From the NCBI GenBank assembly GCA_963817025.1, contig CAWFML010000001.1, forward strand, positions 285,332 to 349,331: a DNA stretch of 64,000 nucleotides, written 5' to 3'. Shown piece after piece: positions 5,205 through 63,371 of this stretch. The notes beneath the pieces are model-generated. The model searched no databases, was not told the DNA's origin, and saw only the letters and a list, made by a program, of their open reading frames with translations. The number at the start of each line of letters is the position of its first letter. Position 1 is the first letter of the stretch. The stretch comes from Pyrinomonadaceae bacterium (GTDB lineage: Bacteria > Acidobacteriota > Blastocatellia > Pyrinomonadales > Pyrinomonadaceae). Both the position numbers and the translations under genes were made by a program.

Positions 5205-5339
5205 GTCAGAACCGCGAGCGAGAGCAAGGATGAAGGATGAAGGCGGAAGGATGAAAGGCAGGCCGTTCAAACATGAACCACTCAACTTTAAATAGCATGC
5301 TCTTCATCCTTCATCCTTGCTCTCGCTCGCGGTTCTGAC
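5205..5339. repeat. palindromic intergenic repeat, GGATGAAGG family (copy 1)
   Basis: Inverted arms gtcagaaccgcgagcgagagcaaggatgaaggatgaagg and ccttcatccttcatccttgctctcgctcgcggttctgac. A second copy lies at 58629-58743. Confidence 0.8.
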
Positions 5340-6667
5340 TTAGTGATAAGCGGGCGTGCCTTCAAAGACGGTCATGATCTCCTTAATCATCCGGTCATAG
5401 TCGCCGTCATAACGCGACAGCTCGTAACAGCCGAGCGGGTCAGAAATCGCGTGTACCAGACACTTGTTGCAATAGGTGCAGGGTTTATCAGGCAAGTCTT
5501 TGCCGGAAGCGTAGATGTGTGCCAGGTCGTTATTCGCCACCAGCGGGCGCGCGATGGCGACGCCGTCACAGTAGCCCTCTTTAATCACCTTGCGTATATA
5601 CGAGGCCGTCTGAAAACCGCCTGTGCAAAGCACAGGGACTTTGACGTGCTTCTTGATCTCGCGCGCATCGCCGACGCTGATGCCTTCGATGATGTCCGGC
5701 TTGGTGCGGTTCCAGAGGAAATTAAAGAAGGGACGGAGCAGCCTGTAGCGAAACAACAGGAAATTGCGAAAGCCGTACACGCCGCTCGGAATCATGCCGC
5801 CGTAGGTGCGCGCGGCGTGCTCAAGCGGAAACGGGCCGGGCGGGTTCAAGGGATGCGGAAAAGTGCTGCCGCTCGAAACATGTATGGCATCGGCTCCGGC
5901 CTCTTCGACCATTTTGGCAATCGGAATCGTGTCGTCCAGCGTGTTGCCCTTCTTCTCCCAGAAGGCGAGCGCGTTGTTGTGATCCACTGCGCTGAGCTTG
6001 ACCTGAAAGTGGAAATCATCGCCGACCGCGCTTCTGACCGCGCGCATGATTTCGAGCAGGAAGCGCGCACGATTTTCCAGCGAGCCGCCGTATTCGTCTT
6101 TGCGGTTGTTGATGCCCGAGCTTAAGAATTGATTTATCAGATAGCCGTTGCAGGCGTGTAGTTCTACGCCATCCAATCCGGCAGCTTGTGCGCGGCGCGC
6201 GGCGTCGCCAAACTGCCCGACGACCATCTTGATTTCATCGCGCGTCATCGCCTGACACAAGAGGCCGTGAAAAGAGTCTGTCGTGTCGGTCGAGCTTAAG
6301 GCTCTGTTGAAAGAGTTCTCGACGCCGCCGACATCTCGCTGGCGGCCTCCGTGGCTGAGTTGCATGATGTACTTGCAACCGTACTCATGCACCTTCTCTC
6401 CAACCCTGCGCCAGAAAGGAATCTTGTCGTCGTGGTCTATGAAGGCGTAGTTCGGCAGGATACGCCCGCGCGCACTGATGGGCACATGCGAAGAGATAAT
6501 CGCGCCGACGCCGCCGCGCGCAAATTTCTCTTCCCAGTTGATGCGCGCCTGCGTGCCGATGCCGTTGTAGTAATCGAACCTGCCGGAGATATTCGAGCGG
6601 AAGATACGATTTTTCACCGTGAGGTTGCGAAACTGTAAAGGCTCGAAAATGACATCCTGCTCTGCCA
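5340..6667 (-). CDS. Old Yellow Enzyme family NAD(P)H:flavin oxidoreductase (2,4-dienoyl-CoA reductase-like FMN domain)
   Basis: TIM-barrel OYE hallmarks (e.g. HACNGYLINQFLSSGINNRKDEYGGSLENRARFLLEIMRAVRSAVGDDF). The likely true start is MAEQDV at 6667, preceded by a GGAGGA ribosome-binding site; the longer ORF-track start at 6824 runs into a repeat element. Confidence 0.8.
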
Positions 6668-6727: not shown

Positions 6728-6832
6728 ACCAGATGTTCTTTGCGGCGCTTTGCGTCTGTTCTTCTTTGCGGTTAAGAGTTTTTTTTAACGCAAAGGGCGC
6801 GAAGTATTTTCGCAAAGAGCGCAAAGATTATT
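6728..6832. repeat. palindromic repeat, GCGCAAAG family (degenerate copy)
   Basis: ctttgcggcgctttgcgtctg...cgcaaagggcgcgaag...cgcaaagagcgcaaag, imperfect inverted CTTTGCG/CGCAAAG units. Confidence 0.6.
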
Positions 6833-19482: not shown

Positions 19483-21253
<1,771 letters not shown>

Positions 21254-23950: not shown

Positions 23951-23984
23951 GGTAAGCTTTGAATTTGAAAGAGAACGTCTCATG

Positions 23985-24086
23985 CAAAGGCGCAAAAGGA
24001 AGGTAAAAGTGAAGAGTGATTGAATGCTTTCCTGCCTTTTACCTTTTACCTTTTTACTTTTACCTTCCTTTTGCGCCTTTGCGAGA
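23985..24086. repeat. palindromic repeat, GTAAAAG family (copy b) with GCGCAAAG-type outer arms
   Basis: caaaggcgcaaaaggaaggtaaaagtgaagag ... cctgccttttaccttttacctttttacttttaccttccttttgcgcctttgcg. Confidence 0.8.
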
Positions 24087-30162: not shown

Positions 30163-30490
30163 CTGCCTCCGTGCGGGTTATCCGAAGAGACTTTCAAAAT
30201 ATAACTGCTGCAAAGTTCGTCCCAGAGATAAAATAGGAAGAATCCGTTTCATCAATAAATAACACTCAAGTCGCACAGATTTCAAACTCAGAGTGAGTTT
30301 TGTTGTTTTTATAGCCATTAGCGATTGGATATAGCCGCTTGAGCAGGGCATCTTGTCAGAACCGCCTGCGGCAAGCGTGCGGGTTCTTAGCATTGAAGAC
30401 CCGCACGCTTGCCGCAGGCGGTTCTGACCTGTGTCTACACTCAATCGCAAATTGCTATAGTAGTTGCCCGCAGGAATTTGGTTAGATTAA

Positions 30491-30745
30491 CGTGAGTTCG
30501 ACGGAAGAACGGTGCGGTGTTAGTTAGCCCCGGAGGGGCGGCATATATTAGCCCACGGCTTCAGCCGTGGGGACAGCACCCACATCAATGGTCTAAGCCC
30601 CGGAGGGGCGGCATAATCTATACCGCCCCTCCGGGGCTTAGACCTTGTAGGGCGTCTTGTCCCAGCACTGACGTGCTGGGCTAATATATGTCGCCCCTCC
30701 GGGGCTGTCATGGAGCAATCCTCTTCCGCTTATATCGAACTCACG
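30491..30745. mobile_element. MITE-like non-autonomous element, copy A (255 bp, 11-bp terminal inverted repeats, 9-bp target-site duplication TTAGATTAA)
   Basis: Ends are cgtgagttcga...tcgaactcacg. It is flanked on both sides by ttagattaa. The interior carries four copies of the palindromic 14-mer GCCCCGGAGGGGCG and its reverse complement. Copy B at 51512-51789 is the reverse complement. Confidence 0.8.
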
Positions 30746-33887: not shown

Positions 33888-34097
33888 TCGTGGCCTGAAG
33901 ACGCCCTGCGCGATGGCTTTCCAAGGGGTTCCGCGCTTCTGCCGGGGCGTCCTGTTGCAGGGACATTATACGACAGTTCGGGCTGCGAAGTTTAGTTTTT
34001 CCAGAGCCACGAAAGTTAACTCGTTTTCCTTTGCGCCCCCGCGCCTGTGCGCGAGATTAAAAGCTCCCGCACAGGCGCAAAGCAGGCACGCTATGTT

Positions 34098-36476
34098 TCA
34101 TTTACGCAATGCATTGAAAAGCAGCGGGTAAGTTGCAGAGGACTGCGCGCGATACTGCGGGCGAAAGCCGAAGAGAATGACGCGCCCCTTGCCTATCATG
34201 ACTTCGACGAGCGCGGCACGCCCGCGCATCCGCTCGCCGCCCAACAGCCAGCCCGAAAGGAGCGGGTCACGCTCCGGTGGATAACGCGCGATGACCTTCA
34301 CACGCCCCGCAGCTTCCTTCTCATCGCTGATTTCAAAGACCGGAGAATTCTCAACCCACGCGATGGATTCTCGCGGCATCCCTTTGGCAAGCGGATGCGT
34401 GGTATCAAGTTCAATCCGCAGGATAGAGCCGGGCGCGTAAAACTCCGTCCGCTTCAAGCCTTCTGTAACATCGCGCACGGGCAGCTTGAATTGTTCGATG
34501 GCAAAATCCGACGCGCGGTTCAAGAAGATGAGCGTCCCGCCCTCTGAAATAAAATCGCGCAAAGCTCTGACGCCTTCCGGCCCAAGCCCGCCAGTGTATT
34601 CATCCGGCATAGAGCCTTTGCGATGGCCTTCGAGAATTGCGCGCGGCGATTGGTCTGGAATGATAATCGTATCGAATCGCGCGCGTAAGTTGCCCGTTCT
34701 GATGGCTGCGTCTTGTAAGGTCAAAAAATCGAAACAGCTACCGGCTTGCTCAAGCATCCATCTGGTCCATCCCTCGTCCATTGAAGGAACGTGAGATTTA
34801 TAGACCGCACGGCGCGGCGGCCCCGAACCTCGACACAATTCTATTCCACCTGTTCCGCCGGCAAGCTTCTCCCGGTATTTAAAGGATTTGTAGACGGGCT
34901 TGGCGTCAACATTCATCAGCAGCGGCAGAGTATGCGCTGTCACATCATAGGGCGATATTGGATGGTTTGCTGCATCCCTTAAATCCGGGTAGCGCTGCGC
35001 CTCAAGCAGAGTTTTGGCAAAACCTGCGTAAGGCTGCGCCATAGGAATCAGGGTCGAGCCTGCCGTGTAAGTAACTCCGTCAAGATTAATCTTATCTATC
35101 TCGATGGTTTCGACGCCGCCCTTCTCCAAAGTTAAAATGAGTTCGCGTGTATTATCATCATTCTCGGACTTCGGAATAATCCAAGCGTATAACTCACCAT
35201 CTTTACGCGGCCTGACAGCTTCTTTTCCAATCTCATAAAACCTTTTCAGCCAACGCTCGCGGTTCTCCGCCGCGTGCGTCATCAGCGAGAAGGCGGCGGC
35301 GGTCATGTAATTTGTGATGTCTCTCAAATGCCACTCGCCGCCCGTCCAGAGCGGTGAGAATTTGTCCGTCTCTTTCTTCGCGTCATAGCCGACCGAGCCG
35401 CGCAACTCTTCAAACTTAATCGTCACCGGCGTGGCGATGCGCGCCGATGCCGTTTCCGAGAGAATGCGTACGCCGCCGTGATAATGCGAGTAGGCGCGTG
35501 CGGGCGTCCATGCGTCGTAGGTCGTATTGGTCGTGATGCCTTTAAAATCTGCCGCGCGCAGCTCTGCGGCCATCGCGTTTCCGAGTTCGGTGTAGCCTTC
35601 GACGATTTGCTCCGGCACATTCGGCTCGACAGGCTCCATGTAGGGCGGCAGGAAGAGACGCGCGCCGTTCGCTCCCTGCTGGTGTATGTCGTGGACGATC
35701 TGCGGATGCCAGAGGTTATGAATCTTGTCTACGGTCAACCGGGTCTCGACCTGTGTGAAGGCGTACCAGTCGCGGTTGTTATCGTGGCCCGTGTATTTGT
35801 GATAAAGCTCCGGCGGTTCTGTTCCCTCGTAAGGAGTGCCGAGGGTTTTGTCGTACCAATCTTTGACGATGTCCACGCCGTCAGGATTGAGCGAAGGGAC
35901 TAGCAGCACGATTGTCTCGCTTAAAATCTTACGCACCTGCGGGTCATCCGATGAGGCGAGGCGATGCGCGATGAGCATGCTTGAAAGAGTCGAGCCGACT
36001 TCGGTTGAATGTATGCCGCAGGTGATGAGGACGACGGTTTTTCCTCCGGCGATAAGGCGTTCGGCTTTGCGGTCTGCGCCGCTTCCGAGCCTGCGCGGGT
36101 CTGCCAGTTGCTTCTGAATCTTTTTGTATTCCTGAAGTCGCGCCAGATTTTCCGGCGCGCTGATGGTTGCCAGCACAAACGGCCTGCCCATCGTTGACTG
36201 GCCCAAAGTCTCAAACTTGACGCGGTCTGAGGCCGCATCGAGCCGTGTAAAATAATCCACGATGCTGCGCCAGCTTGCGAGTTTGCGGTCATCGCCGGGA
36301 CGAAAGCCGAGCACGGTTTCAGGCGCGGGAATATTCGGCGGGCTGGTTGCGGCAGCGGCGCGCGGCGTCTGTCGCCCTCTGGAATTTCGCTGCGCTAAAG
36401 ACGGCGCGGCGCACGAAATCACGATCAGCAGCATCAAGATAAAAGAGACGGGCAGCCGTAGGCGTATATGCATCAA
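34098..36476 (-). CDS. secreted M14-family zinc carboxypeptidase-like protein (large, multi-domain)
   Basis: Signal peptide. Putative zinc-binding residues in ITCGIHSTEVGS and YTGHDNNRDWY resemble the M14 zinc ligands, followed by a long C-terminal extension. Confidence 0.7.
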   Translation of the reverse strand: MMHIRLRLPVSFILMLLIVISCAAPSLAQRNSRGRQTPRAAAATSPPNIPAPETVLGFRPGDDRKLASWRSIVDYFTRLDAASDRVKFETLGQSTMGRPFVLATISAPENLARLQEYKKIQKQLADPRRLGSGADRKAERLIAGGKTVVLITCGIHSTEVGSTLSSMLIAHRLASSDDPQVRKILSETIVLLVPSLNPDGVDIVKDWYDKTLGTPYEGTEPPELYHKYTGHDNNRDWYAFTQVETRLTVDKIHNLWHPQIVHDIHQQGANGARLFLPPYMEPVEPNVPEQIVEGYTELGNAMAAELRAADFKGITTNTTYDAWTPARAYSHYHGGVRILSETASARIATPVTIKFEELRGSVGYDAKKETDKFSPLWTGGEWHLRDITNYMTAAAFSLMTHAAENRERWLKRFYEIGKEAVRPRKDGELYAWIIPKSENDDNTRELILTLEKGGVETIEIDKINLDGVTYTAGSTLIPMAQPYAGFAKTLLEAQRYPDLRDAANHPISPYDVTAHTLPLLMNVDAKPVYKSFKYREKLAGGTGGIELCRGSGPPRRAVYKSHVPSMDEGWTRWMLEQAGSCFDFLTLQDAAIRTGNLRARFDTIIIPDQSPRAILEGHRKGSMPDEYTGGLGPEGVRALRDFISEGGTLIFLNRASDFAIEQFKLPVRDVTEGLKRTEFYAPGSILRIELDTTHPLAKGMPRESIAWVENSPVFEISDEKEAAGRVKVIARYPPERDPLLSGWLLGGERMRGRAALVEVMIGKGRVILFGFRPQYRAQSSATYPLLFNALRK

Positions 36477-39337: not shown

Positions 39338-39527
39338 GTGCGCGCGAAAAGCGAAGAGCGAAAGATAAGCCGGTTTTTAGAGCCGATTTATCTTTCGCTC
39401 TTCAACATTTTTCACTTGACCGGCAACGATTTTCGTTTTTCAATCCTCTATGAATGGGCGGCGCGCCAGCAAGCTAGACGGCGCGCCTTATATTTACTAT
39501 CAGTGTGAAACAAGGGAAGAACCTCAT

Positions 39528-39625
39528 GGCATCGCTTTGCGAGAAAAACTTTGCGTGCTTTGCGTTAAAGAGTCACTTGACCGCAAAGAGCGCGAAAGAG
39601 TAAGACGCAAAGAGACGCAAAGGAA
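39528..39625. repeat. palindromic repeat, GCGCAAAG family (degenerate copy)
   Basis: ctttgcgtgctttgcgttaaagag...cgcaaagagcgcgaaagagtaagacgcaaagagacgcaaagg. Confidence 0.6.
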
Positions 39626-40483: not shown

Positions 40484-40554
40484 GCGGAAGCAAGTTTTTT
40501 CAATAGCGGGTCAGTTTGAAATTCCGGTGAATATTCATCAGGACGAAAGAGATT

Positions 40555-40680
40555 CGCGCAAAGGCGCAAAAGCAAGGCAAAAGTAAAAAGGTAAAAGGCA
40601 AAAGTGAAGACGAGTTGACTGCCTTTCTTACTTTTACCTTTTACCTTTTGCCTTTTTACTTCTGTCGCGCCTTTGCGCGA
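40555..40680. repeat. composite palindromic repeat: GCGCAAAG outer arms enclosing a GGCAAAAG/GTAAAAG core
   Basis: gcgcaaaggcgcaaaagcaaggcaaaagtaaaaaggtaaaaggcaaaagtgaagacgagttgactgcctttcttacttttaccttttaccttttgcctttttacttctgtcgcgcctttgcgcg. Confidence 0.85.
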
Positions 40681-40761
40681 ACATGTTTTTTCTTCGCTGC
40701 TATTGAAACTGAAGAGCTACCGTTTTTTTAGGTTACGTTCTCATTTCGGAAAGATTCTCCC

Positions 40762-42657
40762 ATGAAAAACTCAAACAGCCTTGCGTCTCCCTCTCAGGCA
40801 AACATCTTTTCGCGCATGGCGTTGCTCCTGAGCCTGCCGCTCATGCTCCTGCTTATCACGCACGCGCATGTCAACGCGCAGACGCAAACGCCCGTCGTCG
40901 TGCAGGAAGAGGCGACCACCACGACGAATGCCGTCGAGCGTGCGACAAAGGAAGCAGTCAAGGCCAAGTCCGTTGTCCGTGGCCGCGCCGTCTATGATGA
41001 TACGGATCGGCCCGTGCGCCGCGCTCGCGTCATGCTGCTGGATATGAACCAGCGCGGGCCGGAGCGCACGGGGATGACCAACGGCTCCGGCGAGTTTCAA
41101 ATCAAGGAAGTTCCGGCAGGCAACTACTTTGTGATGGTGGATATGACGGGAGTGATTACGCCTATCAGCTTCGTTGATTTTGAGGATGCCAGCGGCGAGA
41201 AATTCAATCTTGAAGAGGTGAAAAAGCATTTCACGGAAATCGCCGTGGACGGCACGAATGACCAGACCATCAAGGTGCGTGCGCGAAAGGGCGGAGCCAT
41301 CAGCGGCAAAGTGACATACGCGGATGGAGATGCGGCCATCAACGTGCGTGTCAACATCATGCGCAAGAAAGACGGAAAGCTGGCGCGCTTTATCACCAAT
41401 CTTAACCCGTCTGCGTTATTCGGGATTCAAACGGACGACCGTGGGATGTATCGCATCGCAGGGCTGCCGCCCGGCGAATACAACATCAGCGTAGCAGAGA
41501 CTGTGGATCACTCGGAGGGGCGCAGCGGTCGTGAAGAATACTATATGGGGATGAACATGTTCGGCGGCAACTCTCTGCTGGTCACATATTATCAGGGCGC
41601 GACCGATGAGAAAGAGGCGACTTCCCTACAGGTTGACGCCGGACAGGAATATAACGAGATCAACATCTCGCTGGTCGAGCGCGTGCTGCATAAACTCTCG
41701 GGAACAGTCGTCGCGCGGCGTGACAACAAGCCTCTTCCCAATACTCGCATCAGCATCAAAAGCAAAACCGACACCCTTCCAGACTTTGGTTTTATGTCTG
41801 TCGGGCCGGGCGCATCCACAGACGAGCAGGGCCGTTTCACGCTCAACGAGATACCCGACGGCGTTTACACCCTGACGGTCGAATCAACTTATTCAGGCCC
41901 GGAGGTAAGAACTGAAGTGGATGAAGAAGGGTCGCCGTCAACGGCACCCAACGAGTCGAGGCGCAAGCTGATACGCAAGCAGCAGGACGTAACCGTCAAC
42001 GGCAACGATGTGGCGGATTTGACGATCACTCTCATAGAGGGCGCAATCCTCAACGGCACTGTGATGGTTGACGGGGGCAAACCGCTCCCGCCGCTGACTT
42101 ATGTGACGATGGCGGATGCGAGCGGCGCGGTGGTCAGCGATGTCCCGGTGGAGGTGCAGCAAGACGGCAGTTTCACGATAGACGGTTTGCCTGCGGGAGC
42201 CGTTTACCCGAACGTCTCTGTCAGAGCCACGAGTGAAAACTATTACGTGAAATCAATGACGGCAGGCGGCGCGGACTTGATGCGTGACGCGCTCGCCGTC
42301 GGCGAGGGCGCGAACATCAATGGCGTGAAGATTGTCATCTCGCCTGATGCGGCGACGCTCACGGGCCGCGTGCTCGCACCGGACGCTACGCCTGTCAGCG
42401 GCGCGCGCTTTGTGCTTATCCCGGCAGACCTAACTCGTTGGCGCGCACGCATCTCTTATCTCTTCGGAGATTCTGCGGGCAACGGCAGCTACACCGTCAG
42501 CGGCGCGCCCGGAGAGTATCTCATCGTCTTCATGCGACCGGCAGACCAGCCGAACGCCATCAACGAGGCGTGGATTAGAGAACGCGCCGTAAACGCACAG
42601 CGCGTGACGCTGCTGCCGAAACAGAGCAAGAGCATGAACCTGACCATGCCTCAATAG
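40762..42657 (+). CDS. secreted protein with multiple carboxypeptidase-regulatory-like (CarboxypepD_reg / transthyretin-like) beta-sandwich domains
   Basis: Signal peptide. Repeated modules of the type VRGRAVYDDTDRPVRRARVMLLD...GEFQIKEVPAGNYFV, LSGTVVARRDNKPLPNTRISI...GRFTLNEIPDGVYTL and LTGRVLAPDATPVSGARFVLIP...GSYTVSGAPGEYLI. Confidence 0.6.
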   Translation: MKNSNSLASPSQANIFSRMALLLSLPLMLLLITHAHVNAQTQTPVVVQEEATTTTNAVERATKEAVKAKSVVRGRAVYDDTDRPVRRARVMLLDMNQRGPERTGMTNGSGEFQIKEVPAGNYFVMVDMTGVITPISFVDFEDASGEKFNLEEVKKHFTEIAVDGTNDQTIKVRARKGGAISGKVTYADGDAAINVRVNIMRKKDGKLARFITNLNPSALFGIQTDDRGMYRIAGLPPGEYNISVAETVDHSEGRSGREEYYMGMNMFGGNSLLVTYYQGATDEKEATSLQVDAGQEYNEINISLVERVLHKLSGTVVARRDNKPLPNTRISIKSKTDTLPDFGFMSVGPGASTDEQGRFTLNEIPDGVYTLTVESTYSGPEVRTEVDEEGSPSTAPNESRRKLIRKQQDVTVNGNDVADLTITLIEGAILNGTVMVDGGKPLPPLTYVTMADASGAVVSDVPVEVQQDGSFTIDGLPAGAVYPNVSVRATSENYYVKSMTAGGADLMRDALAVGEGANINGVKIVISPDAATLTGRVLAPDATPVSGARFVLIPADLTRWRARISYLFGDSAGNGSYTVSGAPGEYLIVFMRPADQPNAINEAWIRERAVNAQRVTLLPKQSKSMNLTMPQ

Positions 42658-42750
42658 AAGGCAAAAGTAAAAAGGTAAAAGGCAAAAGTCAGAGAAGCAT
42701 TCAACTGCTCTTCACTTTTGCCTTTTACCTTTTTACTTTTGCCTTCTTCC
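42658..42750. repeat. palindromic repeat, GGCAAAAG/GTAAAAG family (copy e), abutting a stop codon
   Basis: aggcaaaagtaaaaaggtaaaaggcaaaagtcagagaagcattcaactgctcttcacttttgccttttacctttttacttttgcc. Nearly identical to the copy at 57412-57505. Confidence 0.85.
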
Positions 42751-43342: not shown

Positions 43343-43411
43343 CACGCTGGTGGCGCAAAGGCGCAAAGAAGGACTTAATCGTTTTCTTTGCGCCTTTGCG
43401 CCACCAGCGTG
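43343..43411. repeat. perfect 69-bp palindrome, GCGCAAAG family (copy c)
   Basis: cacgctggtggcgcaaaggcgcaaagaaggacttaatcgttttctttgcgcctttgcgccaccagcgtg. Confidence 0.9.
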
Positions 43412-44365: not shown

Positions 44366-44395
44366 TTGACATGTTTGCGGGCAATCGCTTAGTAT
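44366..44395 (+). promoter_or_regulatory. sigma70-type promoter of cspA (TTGACA-18nt-TAGTAT) giving a ~290-nt 5'UTR
   Basis: TTGACA at 44366-44371 and TAGTAT at 44390-44395. The ATG is at 44687. Long structured 5'UTRs are typical of cold-shock genes. Confidence 0.5.
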
Positions 44396-44686
44396 GCGCC
44401 GTCGTTTGAGGCAAGTATTTCCTCTAACCCATCCCCGTGGTTAGATTTGCAAGCGTTACAGTAATGAGTTTTAGTTCTTCCCCGTTGAGTCTGTGTCTGA
44501 TGAAAAGAGTTGCGCTCCCGGCGCTCTCTTGATTCCGCACAGGCTTTTTCTTGTATTGTGCAGTTTCCGTGCGGTGCCCCATCAAAAGCGCCATCCGGCT
44601 CACAAGCATTAACCTGAGCGATGCCAAAGCCTTCAGAAAGCTTTTGCTCCCGCGTTTTACCGAATCGTTAGGAGGATTCGTTTGCT

Positions 44687-44893
44687 ATGTCTAGAATAAC
44701 CGGCAAGGTCAAGTGGTTCAACAATTCGAAGGGTTACGGCTTCATTGAGCAGCCCGGCTCCTCGGACATTTTCGTTCACTACAGCGCCATTCAGGGCGAC
44801 GGCTTCAAGACTCTCGAAGAGGGTCAGGAAGTCGAATTCGAAGTCACGCAAGGCCCGAAAGGCCCGCAGGCTGAGAAAGTGATCAAGATGTAA
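44687..44893 (+). CDS. cspA: cold-shock protein (CspA family)
   Basis: [53 protein letters not shown], with the RNP1/RNP2 motifs KGYGFI and DIFVHY. An AGGAGG ribosome-binding site is present. Confidence 0.97.
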
Positions 44894-45031
44894 GATACTC
44901 CCCGGCTTTCCTCACAAAGCAAAGCCACTGACCGCTTCCGGTCTTGAGTCCGGAAGGAGTTAAAAGAAGAAAGGCGATTTCCCGAATTCGAGAAATCGCC
45001 TTTTTTCTTTGCCAGCTCCGCCTTCAATATT

Positions 45032-45619
45032 TCAAGCCACATTCTTTCTCACAATCAAGGCCAGATGCCCGCGAGAAGTCGGGTCGTCCACCTCACACAG
45101 CTCGACCTCAAAACCCACGTCTCTTAACAGGCGTAATGTCTCGACAGGCTCATAGCCGCTGTAAAAGAACGTCTGGCCGAACATCTCGGAGGTAAAGCCT
45201 TCATGACCTGTGCCTCCGGCGGATAACAGAAACGGGCCGCCGGGCGACAGCCGCTCGTAAACTTTCCGAAAGACGCTCTGGTGGCATTCGCGCTCGACAT
45301 GAAAAATCGAATCCCACGCAATCGCCGCCGCAAAGCTTCCGGTCAACTCAACTTCGCACATGTCGCCCTCTATCAGTAAAGCCTCAGGCACAACCCCGCG
45401 CGCAATCTCAAGCATCGCTGCCGACTGATCCAGCCCGACGACTTGAAAGCCTTTCTGGACCAGATAATGTGCGACGGGCATCCCCGTCCCGCAACCGAGG
45501 TCGAGGATTTTCGCGCCCGGCTCAAGCCTATCGAGAACGAAGTCAACATATTTCTTCGCCCCGAAAAATTTGCGGCTCGCGTGCCAGTCTCCGGCAATCA
45601 AATCATAAGCATTTCGCAT
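45032..45619 (-). CDS. class I SAM-dependent methyltransferase
   Basis: ILDLGCGTGMPVAHYL (motif I) followed by VVGLDQSAAM. Confidence 0.8.
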   Translation of the reverse strand: MRNAYDLIAGDWHASRKFFGAKKYVDFVLDRLEPGAKILDLGCGTGMPVAHYLVQKGFQVVGLDQSAAMLEIARGVVPEALLIEGDMCEVELTGSFAAAIAWDSIFHVERECHQSVFRKVYERLSPGGPFLLSAGGTGHEGFTSEMFGQTFFYSGYEPVETLRLLRDVGFEVELCEVDDPTSRGHLALIVRKNVA

Positions 45620-45751
45620 CGCTCCGAATATCGAACCTTTCCTTTGTTTGCCACTCCTCTGATGCTCTACGCGCTTTCAATTTTTAGGAGTGGGTCAAGG
45701 TGAAGTTGATGAGTCGTTAATCATGAACTGAGTGCGGAAGAAAGCAAGATT

Positions 45752-45850
45752 CTCCCGCAAAGACGCAAAGGCGCAGAGGAAGACCGCAAAGGTGTTGAGT
45801 GCCACTCGCTCTTGGCGTGCTTTTCTTTAAGCCTTTGCGCCTTTGCGGGA
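45752..45850. repeat. palindromic repeat, GCGCAAAG family (copy d)
   Basis: cgcaaagacgcaaaggcgcagaggaagaccgcaaaggtgttgagtgccactcgctcttggcgtgcttttctttaagcctttgcgcctttgcg. Confidence 0.85.
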
Positions 45851-45893
45851 AACTGTCTTTTGGTCTCCGCGCTTGTCATCTGAAACTGACTCA

Positions 45894-46310
45894 CTACCCA
45901 ATTTTTGATTTACGCTTGCGCCGTTCTCCTGCATCCGTGAAGGCAAAGGCGAATCCGAAGACGAAGGTCGCAGGGAAGAAGATAAACATCGCTTTCTCCC
46001 AGAGCCGGAATTTCTCGAAGTCTTCCTCTGTGCGCGTCGTGCCGCCCTTGCCTGCGTAGCCGTTTCCGGTTTGCCTGATAGGCGCATCAGGAAAGTTGTA
46101 AGCCCCGTAGATCAAGGTGGCAGATGCCAGCACAGACGCAGTGATAGTGAGCAGGAGCAGGAGGCGCGTGAGTGGCCCACGATGCCGCGCCCTTTTCCGC
46201 TCAAGCCCGGCCTGTCTAGCCATCTGTGTATATAACGCCTGTGCCTCGCTCAGAGCATCGCGCCCTTGCTCCGGCGCGGGCTGTGAACTCCTGCGGTCAG
46301 CTTCTTTCAT
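45894..46310 (-). CDS. hypothetical membrane protein
   Basis: ORF with two predicted TM helices (LLLLTITASVLASATLIYGAY; IFFPATFVFGFAFAF). The start is uncertain; the internal MKEADRR at 46310 is preferred over the ORF-track 46418. Confidence 0.35.
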   Translation of the reverse strand: MKEADRRSSQPAPEQGRDALSEAQALYTQMARQAGLERKRARHRGPLTRLLLLLTITASVLASATLIYGAYNFPDAPIRQTGNGYAGKGGTTRTEEDFEKFRLWEKAMFIFFPATFVFGFAFAFTDAGERRKRKSKIG

Positions 46311-50107: not shown

Positions 50108-50213
50108 CCCGCAAAGGCGCAAAGGCGCAAAGCAAGACGCGAAGAAAGCGTTCAAGATAAATAGAGCTTCAACACCTTTGCGTGCTTTTCTTTGCGCCTT
50201 TGCGCCTTTGCGC
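50108..50213. repeat. palindromic repeat, GCGCAAAG family (copy e)
   Basis: cccgcaaaggcgcaaaggcgcaaagcaagacgcgaagaaagcg...cacctttgcgtgcttttctttgcgcctttgcgcctttgcg. Confidence 0.85.
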
Positions 50214-51511: not shown

Positions 51512-51789
51512 CGTGAGTTCGATATAAGCAGAAGAGGATGCTGCATGACAGCCCCGGAGGGGCGACATAGCTTAGCCCGGCACGTCAGTGCCGGGACAAG
51601 ACGCCCTACAAGGACGAAGCCCCGGAGGGGCAACATATTATGCCGCCCCTCCGGGGCTTCGACTTTTGATGTGGCTGCTGTGTCCACGGCTGAAGCCGTG
51701 GGCTAATCTATGTCGCCCCTCCGGGGCTATCTAACATCTCGCCCCTCCGGGGCTAACTGACACCTCACCGTTCTTACGTCGTACTCACG
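51512..51789. mobile_element. MITE-like element, copy B (278 bp, inverted relative to copy A), nested inside a GCACAAAG-family palindrome
   Basis: Terminal inverted repeats cgtgagttcga...tcgtactcacg. Flanking duplication ctaagaaa / ttaagaaa. The interior has GCCCCGGAGGGGCG units. The host palindrome arms ttaaccacaaaggcacaaaggcactaagaaa (51481-51511) and ttcttagtgtctttgtgcctttgtggttaa (51809-51838) are split by the insertion. Confidence 0.8.
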
Positions 51790-54763: not shown

Positions 54764-55106
54764 AATTCTATTTTCCTATATTGGCGGCGAGGTTTTATCT
54801 CTTTCACATTTTCCGAAATTGAATTCATAAATACCCGTTAATGATTACAAAGACCGTATTATATTAGGAATATTTCAAGCTGATGCAGCATTCCGGGCAT
54901 TGACGAGATTGGTTCTAACAGTTGGGGCGACTCTGGAAATCAGTTCCGGCTGGCATCATTTGGCGAGAAGCGCGGATTTGTAATCTTCAAGAAGCTTTCT
55001 TAGGCCAGAAACATAGCCACCTTACACGTGATTGCGGTAAATCTTTCAATCTGAGGGAAATTCAGGTAGTGGGTCAGTTTCAGATGACAAGCCCGGAAAC
55101 CAAAAG

Positions 55107-55209
55107 CATGTTCGCGCAAGGGCGCTGGTGGCGCAAAGAAAGCACGCCAAGAGCGAGTGTCATTCAACACCTTTGCGGTCTTTCTTTGCGCCACCAGCGC
55201 CTTTGCGCG
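55107..55209. repeat. palindromic repeat, GCGCAAAG family (copy f, inverted relative to copy d)
   Basis: gcgctggtggcgcaaagaaagcacgccaagagcgagtgtcattcaacacctttgcggtctttctttgcgccaccagcgcctttgcg. Confidence 0.85.
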
Positions 55210-55379
55210 AATATGCTTTTCTTCGCTATTTGTGAAGCAGACTCACTACTCCCTGAAAAAGGGACTAGCCGGGATGAAGCGCTTCGTTATATAATGCTTT
55301 TGCCTGCGAGATTTTCTCTCTCGCTTAGCAATTGCCCATCTAAATATTTTTCCTCCTCAAGCTTGCAATCTCGAACATC

Positions 55380-57410
55380 TTGAAATATTCAACGACATCA
55401 TTCAAAACATTTGTGTTCTCGTTCCTGCTCTCGGTCTTGGCCGCGCTCTCGATTTGTGCGCTGTGGGAGGCGGGGCTGCTGGCTTCTATGCAGAAAGCCT
55501 TTCTGCTCAGGCATCCGGAGATCACGGCTGAAATAGTTGCGCCGCAGCTATGGATTGCGCTGCTGCTGATTTTTACGGCGGGCATCTTCGCGGGCCTCGC
55601 GGTGGAGCGCATGGGCGCAAGGCGCGCGTTGCCCTTTATCTCAGGCGCGCTGATAGCCGGTTGCGCGGCGAGCTTTCTCAGCTCCTACTTTTTGCAGGTA
55701 GATGTGGTCTTTGCGCCCGCCGCGCTCTCCACGCTGGCCGCTGCCGCTCTGGTGCAGACAGCGCGCCTCTGGCACGTTGATGTGATGCTGACGCGCAACA
55801 TGCGACAGGTGGCCGCGCAGACTCACGCGCTCGAAGGCGGAGCAGCCCACGCGCGGCTGATGAGCGGCCTACGGCTGCTGGACACAGTCCTCCCTCTGGA
55901 CGAGGCCGTGATTTTTCATCCGGACGAGAATAACCATCTCGCCCCGGCTGCTCGCTTGCGCGCCACTGCCGGAGAGAAGCCGGAAAGCAATCCGAACTCT
56001 GCATGGCGCGAGGGCGTGGAATTGTGCGAGCGCGCGGTCAAGACCGGCAAGATGATGATGATGATGGCCGAGACAGGAGACGGCCCTGCGAGCATCGCTC
56101 TGCCTTTGAGGCATGAAGGTCGTGCTGTCGGAGCTTTGCTGGTACGTCTCTATGAGGGATTTGACGAGAGCGACCGTCCGCTGCTGGCTGCGGTCAGCGC
56201 GCAGATGGCCCGGAATTTTCAGCGCGACGAAGCGCGCAATCAGATTCTCAAAAAAGATTTGTGGGACTACGTCTCCGTCCACGCGGCAGAGCGGCGGCTG
56301 GCCTCTTTCGGCGTCGTCAGCGGTTTGATGACGGAGCAGAGATTCGGCGCGCAGGCTCTGGCCGAAACCTCTGACGGCCATGCGGTCGCATATCTTGACG
56401 GCACGCTGGCGCACATCAACCCGGAGATGCTCAAGGCCGCGCGGCTGACGGAAGATTTGGCGCGCAAGCTGGACATCTTCGGCCTCTTAGACCTTTTTCG
56501 CACGGGCGTCTTTGACGAGCCTTCCATAGCCGTCCGGCGCGTCCTGCAAACAGGCGACCCCTACGAGCGCGAGCTGCATTACGTCGAGCGCAATCAGACG
56601 CTTGAGCTGCGGATAGCCCTCATCACAGAGGGCACGCGCGCCGCCGGAGAGAATGAAGAAAGCGCGGCGCAACCGCTCTGCCTGTCCGTCACCGTGCGCG
56701 ATGTGACGCGCATGAAGGAGTATGAAAAATTGAAGAGCGACATGATCTCGCTGATGTCGCACGAACTCAGAACTCCGATTACGAGCATCAACGGCTTTGC
56801 GGAATTGCTGGCGATGGACGAAAGCATTCCCGAAGAATCGCGCGAGTTTCTGACCATCATCTCCAATGAATCGCAACGCCTCTCGCGGATGATTAATACC
56901 TTCCTCGCCGTCACGCAGCTCGAAGCCGCAGACAAACAGGAGGTCTTGAAAATCCCGCTCAAGATGGACGATGTGGTGCGCGAAACTCTCGCCAGCCTGC
57001 TGCCCGTCGCCAAGAAAAAACGCATCCGTCTGATAGAACAACCGGCCTCGCGCATGCCGCCTGTGGCCGCAGACAAGAGCCTCATCACACAGGTCGTCGC
57101 CAATCTCGTCGGCAACGCCATCAAGTACAGCCCTGAGCGCACGACCGTCACGGTCTCGACAGTGCTCGAAGCAGATGCCGTGCGCGTGCAGGTGGAAGAC
57201 AAGGGTTACGGCATCCCGCCCGAATCAATTGATAAAGTATGGGAGAAATTTTATCGCGTGGCGCGCGACGGGCAGGAGAAGGATGAAGAGTCAACCGGAC
57301 TCGGACTCGCCTTCGTGCGCGAAGTCGTAGAGCAGCACGGCGGCGAGGTCGAAGTTGAATCCGAAGTCGGGCGCGGCTCGACCTTCAGCTTCACGCTGCC
57401 CAGACTCTAA
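55380..57410 (+). CDS. sensor histidine kinase (polytopic N-terminal domain, central GAF-like region, HisKA, HATPase_c), orphan
   Basis: H-box SHELRTPITS, N-box VVANLVGNAIKYS, G-boxes DKGYGI and GLGLAFV. The start codon is uncertain. Confidence 0.85.
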   Translation: MKYSTTSFKTFVFSFLLSVLAALSICALWEAGLLASMQKAFLLRHPEITAEIVAPQLWIALLLIFTAGIFAGLAVERMGARRALPFISGALIAGCAASFLSSYFLQVDVVFAPAALSTLAAAALVQTARLWHVDVMLTRNMRQVAAQTHALEGGAAHARLMSGLRLLDTVLPLDEAVIFHPDENNHLAPAARLRATAGEKPESNPNSAWREGVELCERAVKTGKMMMMMAETGDGPASIALPLRHEGRAVGALLVRLYEGFDESDRPLLAAVSAQMARNFQRDEARNQILKKDLWDYVSVHAAERRLASFGVVSGLMTEQRFGAQALAETSDGHAVAYLDGTLAHINPEMLKAARLTEDLARKLDIFGLLDLFRTGVFDEPSIAVRRVLQTGDPYERELHYVERNQTLELRIALITEGTRAAGENEESAAQPLCLSVTVRDVTRMKEYEKLKSDMISLMSHELRTPITSINGFAELLAMDESIPEESREFLTIISNESQRLSRMINTFLAVTQLEAADKQEVLKIPLKMDDVVRETLASLLPVAKKKRIRLIEQPASRMPPVAADKSLITQVVANLVGNAIKYSPERTTVTVSTVLEADAVRVQVEDKGYGIPPESIDKVWEKFYRVARDGQEKDEESTGLGLAFVREVVEQHGGEVEVESEVGRGSTFSFTLPRL

Positions 57411-57411
57411 A

Positions 57412-57505
57412 GAAGGCAAAAGTAAAAAGGTAAAAGGCAAAAGTCAGAAAGGCATTCAAGCCCTCTTCACTTTTGCCTTTTACCTTTTTACTTTTGCCTT
57501 TTATT
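57412..57505. repeat. palindromic repeat, GGCAAAAG/GTAAAAG family (copy f); overlaps the 3' end of the SET-domain gene
   Basis: aaggcaaaagtaaaaaggtaaaaggcaaaagtcagaaaggcattcaagccctcttcacttttgccttttacctttttacttttgcc. The right arm encodes the last four codons and the stop (K-R-Q-K-TAA) of the minus-strand SET-domain gene. Confidence 0.85.
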
Positions 57506-62073: not shown

Positions 62074-62466
62074 TGGTGGAGGCGCCGAGAATTGAACTCG
62101 GATCCAAAAGTCGCCGCCGGTGCCGTCTACATGCTTAGTCGTTTCTCTTTTCGCAAAGACCCGAAGGCCGTTGCGGTTTTCGCCCTTTGCAGAGTCTGTG
62201 AAACGACAAGACCTCCGCAAGAGCTAGTCCGACTTTATCTCACGCACTGCCACGGACCGAAGCAGCGCGCCAGCTCAACTGAGTGACATCTCCTTCCGCG
62301 CGTATGAGCAACTTGCGGCGAGACGCTCGGTGCTTAATTAGGCAGCGAGAGCCAATTCTTGATTATTGGCAATTGTTTTTTCTCCACGCTTTTTAACGAG
62401 CTGCATGAAGTAGCCCGGCATGCATTCACTCGACGTACAAGACTCCTGTCGAAGCCTGTCGCCCCC
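62074..62466 (-). ncRNA. ssrA: tmRNA (SsrA), ~393 nt, one-piece, CCA encoded
   Basis: The minus strand reads 5'-GGGGGCGACAGGCUUCGAC...GCAUGCCGGG...GUUAAAAAGCG...[tag ORF GCC AAU AAU CAA GAA UUG GCU CUC GCU GCC UAA]...GACUAAGCAUGUAGACGGCACCGG...GGAUCCGAGUUCAAUUCUCGGCGCCUCCACCA-3'. The acceptor stem GGGGGCG/CGCCUCC has a G3-U70 wobble (Ala identity). It has a T-arm-like GAGUUCAAUUCUC and the discriminator A plus CCA. The tag peptide ANNQELALAA is encoded at 62338-62370. Confidence 0.92.
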
Positions 62467-62878: not shown

Positions 62879-63045
62879 TTTATGCCCTCTGTCGAGGAAG
62901 GTCTGAAATCTCAAAGCAGAGGTGAGCTTGGAGTTTAGGAGCAGAATCGGGTTGAGGTCAAGAACTATTGATGTCTGGTGGTGGGTCAACTTGAAGTTGA
63001 TGATTCGTCAATCCTGAATTGAGTACGACAAGAGAGCAGAATTCT

Positions 63046-63143
63046 CACGCAAAGGCGCTGGTGGCGCAAAGCAAGACCGCAAAGCATTGAATGCCACTTG
63101 CTCTTTGCGTGCTTTTCTTTGCGCCACCAGCGCCTTTGCGTGA
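63046..63143. repeat. palindromic repeat, GCGCAAAG family (copy g)
   Basis: cacgcaaaggcgctggtggcgcaaagcaagaccgcaaagcattgaatgccacttgctctttgcgtgcttttctttgcgccaccagcgcctttgcgtg. Confidence 0.85.
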
Positions 63144-63371
63144 ACATTTCGTTTTCTTTGCTATCTTTGAAACTGAACCACTACCTGATGACCGCTTTTC
63201 TTCGGCCAGAGACAGGCAATCTCGTTTCTCTCATTCTTCACACTTGCGTTATAATTCTCAACGCGCCAGCGACACGAAAAAAGTCTCCAAAAGTCGCGCG
63301 TCCATAAAACTCAGGCTCGGGCAACGTGCATCTGAACGCTTGAGCTTACTTTTCAAAGAGGAATTGCTTTC

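Follow-up and report, generated by a model that had tools for sequence, protein, structure and literature searches.

What are the long palindromes that recur through a 64,000-nucleotide stretch of contig CAWFML010000001.1 from a Pyrinomonadaceae bacterium (hereafter the window; ~56% G+C), and what could have placed them there? A preliminary description of this DNA listed seven copies of one palindromic repeat, whose arms contain the unit GCGCAAAG, and regarded them as either REP/BIME-like (repetitive extragenic palindromic sequences or bacterial interspersed mosaic elements) or MITE-like (miniature inverted-repeat transposable elements). We found that this list had merged two distinct layers, MITE-borne hairpins and solo hairpins. 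Four copies (d, f and g of the earlier list, and h, which was not in it) are MITEs of an IS1-family insertion sequence, 186-220 bp long, and the GCGCAAAG hairpin that is their cargo is also found alone, without MITE ends or duplications. Taken together, a reading in which IS1-type MITEs carry a foldback hairpin of definite anatomy, which would itself serve a function at gene ends, is in our judgment likely to be right. The nearest DNA matches to the window among public genomes are metagenome-assembled genomes (MAGs) of Acidobacteriota, from Pyrinomonadaceae and Blastocatellaceae, and protein homologues agree.

The ends of the elements became visible when d, f and g were aligned with their flanks, where similarity extends ~50 nt past the hairpin on each side. 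The ~100-bp boundaries given in the preliminary description fit the internal hairpin but not the whole elements d, f and g, which measure 213, 186 and 209 bp. Their terminal inverted repeat is 18 nt long, GGTAGTG-NNN-CAGTTTCA, with the consensus GGTAGTG-NNN-CAGTTT(C/G)A. It has no more than one mismatch at one end of d, f and g and 3-5 mismatches at the partner end, and in h it is degenerate at both ends. The 18-mer GGTAGTGGGTCAGTTTCA, at one side of d, f and g, has three matches in the window versus 0.01 expected, and the outer inverted partners let each of the three elements fold as a single ~210-nt hairpin.

MITE d (45686-45898) has its right end, GGTAGTGAGTCAGTTTCA, at 45881-45898 on the minus strand and a weaker left end, AGGAGTGGGTCAAGG. 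It encloses a GCGCAAAG hairpin at 45752-45850 and is flanked by a perfect 8-bp duplication, CAATTTTT, at 45678-45685 and 45899-45906. MITE g (62977-63185) is built alike, with the right end GGTAGTGGTTCAGTTTCA (63168-63185, minus strand), the left end GGTGGTGGGTCAAC, an internal hairpin at 63046-63143 and the flanking octamers TGATGTCT (62969-62976) and TGATGACC (63186-63193). MITE f (55065-55250) runs from the left end GGTAGTGGGTCAGTTTCA (55065-55082) to the right end AGTAGTGAGTCTGCTTCA (reverse complement of 55233-55250), and the core of its internal hairpin (55107-55209) lies in the orientation opposite to that of d and g. MITE h (40502-40721, 220 bp) has the ends AATAGCGGGTCAGTTTGA and TTGAAACTGAAGAGCTACC, the flanking octamers GTTTTTTC and GTTTTTTT, and a nested cargo in which outer GCGCAAAG arms (40556-40571 and 40665-40680) surround a hairpin of GGCAAAAG/GGTAAAAG units. 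None of these small elements encodes anything: the single open reading frame (ORF) that covers one of them, 54922-55383 across MITE f, has no Pfam match and is probably spurious. A small ORF through the element was also considered and rejected, as its common start MTS[AP]ETK in d and f is subterminal MITE sequence, the frames then diverge, and in copy e it stops after four codons.

To place these copies among a larger number of insertions, we looked in metagenome contigs for terminal repeats with a CGCAAAG unit behind them, which yielded 52 loci, and scripted pairing of left and right ends delimited many elements of 119-293 bp in them. The final set comprised 36 independent insertion sites, with the window copies and the full-length and plasmid elements described below included. 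Flanking octamers agreed at 8/8 positions in 19 sites and at 7/8 in a further 8 (27 sites at 7/8 or better), compared with 6/8 at most for controls shifted by 10-22 nt. The elements are therefore bounded by a target-site duplication of fixed length, 8 bp, which in the window is 8/8 for d, 7/8 for h, 6/8 for g and 1/8 for f.

Presence and absence at orthologous sites told the same for h and d. Syntenic loci of three relatives (L174, L175 and L176) were obtained via homologues of a PilZ protein. MITE h is missing from both L174 and L175, whose orthologous intergenic region measures 77 nt compared with 278 nt in the window. MITE d is inserted in the last codons of a gene for a conserved 147-aa protein (45909-46310, minus strand) that is intact in L175; the stop codon of the gene, TAG, is now supplied by the terminal repeat of the MITE, GGTAGTGA, and because the octamer was duplicated, the original end of the gene can be reconstructed.

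Two further observations concern insertions of this kind. A methyltransferase gene (45032-45619), which lies between the terminator of a cspA-type gene and MITE d, has no counterpart in the otherwise syntenic L175, so that a gene-sized insertion or deletion adjoins the MITE; next to this gene we saw no second MITE end. At another locus (L162, 3542-3573) a 32-bp element consists of two terminal repeats alone, GGTAGTGGTTCAGTTTCAACTGAACCACTACC, within a perfect 8-bp duplication, GATAATCG, and may represent the smallest mobilisable form of the family.

Which enzyme would move such elements? The ends and the 8-bp duplication of the window MITEs also bound elements of 2.6-5.4 kb, some on contigs from soil metagenomes and others on plasmids of Mesorhizobium and Acidiphilium. 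We delimited six of these full-length elements, all outside the window: four from metagenomes (L155, 3412 bp; L129, 3522 bp; L127, 5359 bp; L173, 2708 bp), one on a Mesorhizobium loti plasmid (L171) and one on an Acidiphilium multivorum plasmid (L172). Each of the six lies within a perfect 8-bp duplication, and the ends of the plasmid elements, GGTAGTGGGTCAGTTTGA ... TCAAACTGACCCACTACC, are the same as those of the MITEs. A BLAST search of MITE d itself against the PLSDB plasmids gave no match. The full elements encode a DDE transposase of ~280-310 aa in a single ORF. The L155 and L129 transposases match the catalytic domain DDE_Tnp_IS1 (PF03400) in Pfam with 26.5 and 28.9 bits (cut-off 24.1), and their best NCBIfam model is the IS1 family (NF033558). 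Homologues of these two are encoded by L127 and by a decayed 1065-bp element at L147; those on the M. loti and A. multivorum plasmids have 53-56% identity and are likewise annotated as IS1 family transposase, as are, by JGI or NCBI, many of the more than 8000 homologues.

These features place the MITEs and their partners in the IS1 family. Family ends in ISfinder begin GGnnnTG and duplications are 8-9 bp, with IS1 itself beginning GGTAATG or GGTGATG; the ends found here begin GGTAGTG, the duplication is 8 bp and the partner enzyme is of the DDE_Tnp_IS1 type. In contrast to classical IS1, which has two frameshifted ORFs, the transposase here is a single ORF, and within the family it forms a divergent branch. 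The full-length elements (L155, L129, L127 and L171-L173) are also transporter-like, as they carry passenger genes: an HTH-Peptidase_M78 (ImmA/IrrE-like) protein, Gp49/HTH and RES/Xre toxin-antitoxin pairs, and ClpP-like, SecB-like, Imm_superinfect and 'histone H1' proteins. None of the full elements contains the GCGCAAAG hairpin. The MITEs are therefore IS1-type ends around a different, unrelated cargo rather than simple deletion derivatives. By this account an IS1-type transposase would bind the MITE ends in trans, cut with an 8-bp stagger and move the small element.

The second layer is the hairpin itself. All seven copies of the preliminary description are present where it placed them, and 43343-43411 is the perfect 69-bp palindrome that had been reported, with 28-nt arms, CACGCTGGTGGCGCAAAGGCGCAAAGAA, and a 13-nt loop. 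The exact 8-mer GCGCAAAG occurs 29 times in the window versus 8.4 expected, a number reached by no shuffle, and the 16-mer double unit GCGCAAAGGCGCAAAG occurs 13 times with up to two mismatches (0.2 expected). Arms consist of tandem 8-nt GCGCAAAG-type units, and the apical region is short and conserved. Folded as RNA and compared with shuffles, 43343-43411 reaches -58.5 kcal/mol (z = -11.2), and the other six listed copies form long hairpins with z from -3.4 to -10.2. The arms had been described as common to d, e, f and g; we found the GCTGGTGGCGCAAAG arm only in f, g and 43343-43411, with plain GCAAAGGCGCAAAG arms in d and e. An asymmetric 45-nt core is shared by d, f and g and recurs in other species (L108 and L071, 82-84% identity). 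Besides the seven copies there are CGCAAAG-armed hairpins at 23984-24082 and 34029-34082 and in the element at 40502-40721 (MITE h). Summed over element coordinates, palindromic repeats of all families occupy about 2.6 kb of the window, more than the ~1.5 kb first estimated.

Several of these hairpins stand alone. The one at 43343-43411 has neither inverted-repeat ends nor a duplication and lies 15 nt past the stop of a PilZ gene and 20 nt past the stop of a convergent FG-GAP gene. Its loop, GAAGGACTTAATCGTTTTC, resembles by eye those of MITE cargo in L156 and L152, and the same site holds an IS1-type MITE in L174, nothing in L175 and a canonical terminator in L176. In copy e (50108-50213) each arm contains three GCGCAAAG units and the core has diverged; the stops of the convergent genes on either side are 15 and 22 nt away. 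The subterminal MITE motif GCTTGTCATC persists in one flank (to about 50260), but no end can be recognised, and the copy is probably what truncation or decay has left of a MITE. A canonical A-tract/stem/T-tract terminator occupies the orthologous site in L007. Copies a and b had been listed as degenerate, which they are, but their arrangement is the opposite one, CTTTGCG...CGCAAAG. Copy a (6728-6832, z = -4.3) lies between two minus-strand genes, 47 nt past the stop of the upstream one. Copy b (39528-39625, z = -3.4) lies in the intergenic region from the OPT to the DUF4878 gene, downstream of another hairpin (39353-39403); the printed sequence of this region showed nothing like it in L174 or L175. 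The two remaining solo hairpins are a nested one at 23984-24082, with outer GCAAAGGCGCAAAAGG arms around a GGTAAAAG-unit hairpin, and a short CGCAAAG/CGCACAG one at 34029-34082, ~20 nt past the stop of a minus-strand gene (34098-36476); L096 has at the orthologous site another CGCAAAG hairpin, whose arms are in the opposite arrangement. Around all six (43343, 50108, 6728, 39528, 34029 and 23984), BLAST of the MITE ends and best-mismatch scans gave background only. On inspection we saw no duplications or common target sequences flanking the solo hairpins, in contrast to d, g and h.

A hairpin of CACAAAG units at 19485-19610, with the pyrimidine-rich arm first (the opposite arrangement), lies directly upstream of groEL (19628-21253) and would fall in its leader; the surroundings are a heat-shock neighbourhood whose proteins, judged by eye from the translations, are Hsp20-, ClpB-, GroEL- and ClpA/C-like.

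CACAAAG is one of several other 7-9-nt units from which hairpins in the window are built, together with GGCAAAAG/GGTAAAAG (six copies) and GGATGAAG; many unit types follow a common design, NNNNAAAG. Two solo members of these sister families bear on how the hairpins arise. One (42656-42747; arms AAGGCAAAAGTAAAAAGGTAAAAGGCAAAAGT, 34/34 paired) starts within the stop codon of the gene at 40762-42657; in L175 and L174 its orthologous site bears hairpins of other arm units, ahead of a conserved flank, TAAAGTTTTT. The other (57413-57500) lies between convergent genes, 2 nt past one stop and with the other stop inside its arm. They fold with z of -14.2 and -12.7, respectively, and in our own alignment their 32-nt arm cores are identical and their loops differ at few positions although the loci are unrelated; judged from this alignment, they are copies of each other and not products of convergence. 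The loop motif GCATTCAA of 42656-42747 also occurs in GCGCAAAG copies and, by eye, a motif around TTGAATGC / GCATTCAA is common to the loops of the GGTAAAAG and GCGCAAAG families.

Hairpins are also nested at the centre of other hairpins, in MITE h, at 23984, in a MITE of L174, at a site of L175, and in L141 and L137. The site behind the CarboxypepD_reg gene could be followed in three species. In each, a long hairpin begins at the stop codon and is followed by a conserved flank, TAAAGTTTTT, and the arms are of three types: GGCAAAAG-type here, CGCAGAG with a degenerate inner pair in L175 and GGGTGTAG in L174. The window site retains a remnant, CTCTGCGG, of the L175-type outer arm. In L174, the arm units GGGTGTAG / GGGTGTCG form two hairpins (5790-5880 and 6452-6545), one of them solo after the CarboxypepD_reg gene and the other enclosed by the CGCAAAG arms that an IS1-type MITE carries.

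Next, we scanned one genome per species with the pattern GGCGCAAAG-N(16-46)-CTTTGCGCC and obtained at least 118 loci, a sample rather than a census. Since the pattern specifies 18 bases, some matches are expected by chance. Further paired units in register were found in 82 of the 118 matches listed, including 37 of the 42 loci of Acidobacteriota, and the 36 without them look like chance. Other sources among the matches listed were Bacteroidota, Planctomycetota, Verrucomicrobiota, Chloroflexota, Chlamydiota, Actinomycetota, Myxococcota/Desulfobacterota, Beta- and Gammaproteobacteria and one archaeal MAG, with Sorangium isolate genomes included. Multi-unit CGCAAAG hairpins were thus present in at least nine phyla, of which some assignments depend on MAG binning, and many hairpins of different phyla have a common three-unit layout (TC-N-CGCAAAG-G-CGCAAAG-N-CGCAAAG, loop, mirror image). 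The proposal that this is a dispersed family is borne out well beyond the window, in public genomes and metagenomes. When acidobacterial loci were sampled without regard to MITE ends, IS1-type ends were found at 1 of 40 hairpin loci among the matches listed (L050), with the rest near background.

How do the hairpins without ends spread? They might form a portable class of gene-end elements that crosses phyla and spreads by itself, without ends or duplications, with hairpins of GCGCAAAG, GGTAAAAG, GGATGAAG and GGGTGTAG units as its members and the MITEs having merely captured one of them. The route could be insertion at the middle of a hairpin or terminator already in place, or ectopic gene conversion there once the palindrome has broken; each such event would overwrite the site yet leave it filled. 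We entertain this tentatively. It is favoured because nesting at the centre is repeated, three arm types occupy one orthologous site, identical arms occur at unrelated loci, solo hairpins lack remnants of MITE ends and CGCAAAG hairpins extend to at least nine phyla.

The converse, in which every solo hairpin would be no more than an IS1-type MITE that has decayed or lost a part, without an existence of its own, and its position at gene ends would mark where insertions are tolerated, seems rather unlikely. One-ended MITEs are indeed common in the metagenome set (L121, L140, L156, L157 and L160), copy e has the subterminal MITE motif on one side only, and by eye the loops of solo and MITE-borne hairpins are alike (43343 and those of L152 and L156; L160 2163-2232 and that of L157). 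However, decay would have to account for the 39 of 40 end-blind acidobacterial loci that show no excess similarity to the ends. Several solo hairpins also start 0-2 nt past one stop and end 18-22 nt before the next, which leaves no room for decayed MITE flanks of 40-60 nt, and multi-unit hairpins are present in phyla in which the metagenome-contig scan found no such ends.

What the hairpins might do is suggested by where they lie. Most of those in the window start within 25 nt of a stop codon, and in four convergent gene pairs the hairpin is 2-22 nt from both stops. Among the genome matches listed, by gene calls that are crude, 24 were in convergent, 46 in tandem and 9 in divergent contexts and 28 were called inside ORFs; in the tandem pairs the hairpin was closer to the upstream stop than to the downstream start. 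At two equivalent sites, relatives have canonical terminators (L007 and L176). The pattern is one of an occupied site with a changing occupant, as if hairpins turned over fast while the site remained filled, and it is compatible with a function at gene ends, the simplest candidates being a bidirectional terminator and a 3' stabiliser. Its RNA could act at mRNA 3' ends by stopping transcription from both sides, by blocking 3' exonucleases or as an RNase III site.

Several results weigh against the two-layer reading. On the side of the MITEs, no target-site duplication is recognisable at f, and the L155 and L129 transposases score 50-55 bits with NF033558, below the cut-off of 100 that NCBI curates for this IS1 equivalog model. 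With tblastn, no IS1-type transposase was found in the 64-kb window, for which reason mobilisation in the source organism is something we infer. On the side of the hairpins, sequence speaks weakly for a terminator: a run of four T within 16 nt downstream follows 20% of multi-unit hairpins compared with 5.6% of random positions in the same loci, a modest enrichment against an imperfect control, as random positions are mostly coding. T-tracts follow h, f and the 42656 site, and none follows 43343. Stems of 25-50 bp are far longer than those of usual terminators (5-14 bp). Hairpins of the opposite arrangement (6728, 39528, 34029 and 19485) and copies in divergent intergenic regions (f and 58633) are at odds with a terminator.

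Could the hairpins then be ordinary intrinsic terminators that arose in place, their GCGCAAAG units the outcome of convergence on a GC clamp with an A/U tract and of expansion by slippage, rather than of descent or mobility? Like bidirectional intrinsic terminators, they lie at 3' ends and between convergent genes, some copies are A-rich/stem/T-rich, canonical terminators occupy equivalent sites in relatives and the units follow the common NNNNAAAG design. The source genome also has canonical terminators built AAAGGCG...CGCCTTT, for example at 44963-45010 after cspA. Unlike terminators of that kind, most hairpins here have no T-tract and their sequences are repeated between loci. The identical 32-nt arm cores and near-identical loops of 42656 and 57413, the 45-nt asymmetric core of d, f and g that recurs in L108 and L071, the inverted-repeat ends of four copies and the duplications at d, g and h demonstrate copying rather than convergence, which makes independent origin in place improbable.

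The cspA-type cold-shock gene (44688-44893, plus strand) was absent from the ORF list and has 89% DNA identity to L175. Its locus (44366-45010) comprises a promoter-like site at 44366-44395, a leader of ~290 nt and the canonical bidirectional terminator. Weak Rfam matches to CsrC and to the cspA thermoregulator at 44594-45018 were set aside, since an ordinary cspA gene whose leader is long accounts for them.

The REP/BIME-like alternative of the preliminary description, or its REPIN variant, would have the hairpins copied by a single-copy REP-associated tyrosine transposase (RAYT), a Y1 HUH enzyme that recognises the arm sequence. The solo hairpins resemble such repeats in being extragenic, multi-copy palindromes at 3' ends, clustered and mutually nested, with conserved arms and variable loops; they have no inverted-repeat ends or duplications, and REPs make no target-site duplications. 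Yet the MITE copies do make them, and the partner that we found for these four copies is an IS1-family DDE transposase and not a tyrosine HUH enzyme. On inspection the hairpins lack a GTAG-type head, and their arms are tandem simple units rather than a single imperfect palindrome of 20-40 nt. A Pfam scan of 30 window ORFs gave no match to a transposase or to the Y1/HUH family, and hence no RAYT among them. REPIN-RAYT pairs are inherited vertically within narrow lineages, unlike hairpins that span at least nine phyla. We regard this origin as very improbable, and the MITE-like half of the preliminary proposal as the one that holds, for d, f, g and the unlisted h (by their ends, the duplications at d, g and h, and the transposase-bearing full elements) but not for the solo hairpins.

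A further reading, in which the elements encode small structured RNAs or act in cis as regulatory RNAs of defined fold, is scarcely credible despite their very stable predicted folding and common apical motif, as scans of Rfam at both the gathering and more permissive thresholds assigned the hairpins to no family and gave only below-threshold matches to generic hairpin (microRNA) precursor models, the foldback is plain and symmetric and reads alike on both strands, the core lies in both orientations relative to neighbouring genes, and a promoter scan gave no promoter-like sites beside the copies.

Among known systems, Correia elements (CREE/NEMIS) of Neisseria are MITEs of ~100-150 bp whose transcript is a long hairpin, often at gene ends, where they influence how RNase III processes mRNA and are able to end transcription. 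The elements described here are similar in being hairpin-forming MITEs often at gene ends, but in Correia elements the duplication is TA and the inverted-repeat ends form the hairpin, whereas here the duplication is 8 bp, the partner is IS1-type and the hairpin is internal cargo. SPRITE, BOX and RUP of Streptococcus pneumoniae are likewise small multi-copy intergenic repeats, one of them like a rho-independent terminator, which cluster and insert into one another (PMC10969869). They differ in lineage and sequence from the present family, whose arms are tandem 8-nt units and whose hairpin is found both alone and in a MITE. MITEs, terminator-like repeats such as SPRITE and nested repeats are established kinds (PMC10969869), and broad MITE surveys exist (PMC11602168). 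Searches of the literature for the arm-repeat strings, the terminal repeat, the MITE and the GCGCAAAG-unit hairpins found no description; the terminal-repeat string retrieved unrelated papers only, and nothing was found on ISMhu11. The four window copies are new members of the IS1-derived MITE kind, and what is new is the combination of IS1 ends with a foldback that also lives alone and has interchangeable arm units.

The window contains further repeats and RNA genes. Four copies of Acido-Lenti-1 (RF01687; 55-66 bits, gathering score 37) form two inverted pairs, 30526-30706 and 51550-51728, within larger GCCCCGGAGGGGC-rich palindromic clusters. They add one more repeat family to those of the genome; in L162, comparable GCCCCGGAGGGGC sequence is present close to the minimal 32-bp element. 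Another palindrome family, with the ends GTCAGAACC...GGTTCTGAC, is found at 5205-5339 and 30355-30428 (arms paired 38/38 and 30/30), and a member of the same kind is nested within an IS1-type MITE at metagenome locus L137 (2433-2725). A transfer-messenger RNA gene (62074-62466, minus strand; 169.8 bits; tag peptide ANNQELALAA) lies ~500 nt from MITE g.

These results turn an unannotated palindrome family into an annotatable, widespread IS1-type MITE with defined ends and an 8-bp duplication, present in the Acidobacteriota, a major phylum of soils that has been little studied. The MITE shares its ends with passenger-carrying IS1-type elements on alphaproteobacterial plasmids, and its insertions reshape gene ends, in one case giving a conserved gene its stop codon. 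If the hairpins terminate or stabilise transcripts, the genome would be supplied with gene-end signals by a stock of repeated modules that can be exchanged, a matter of interest for transcription termination in phyla with few canonical terminators.

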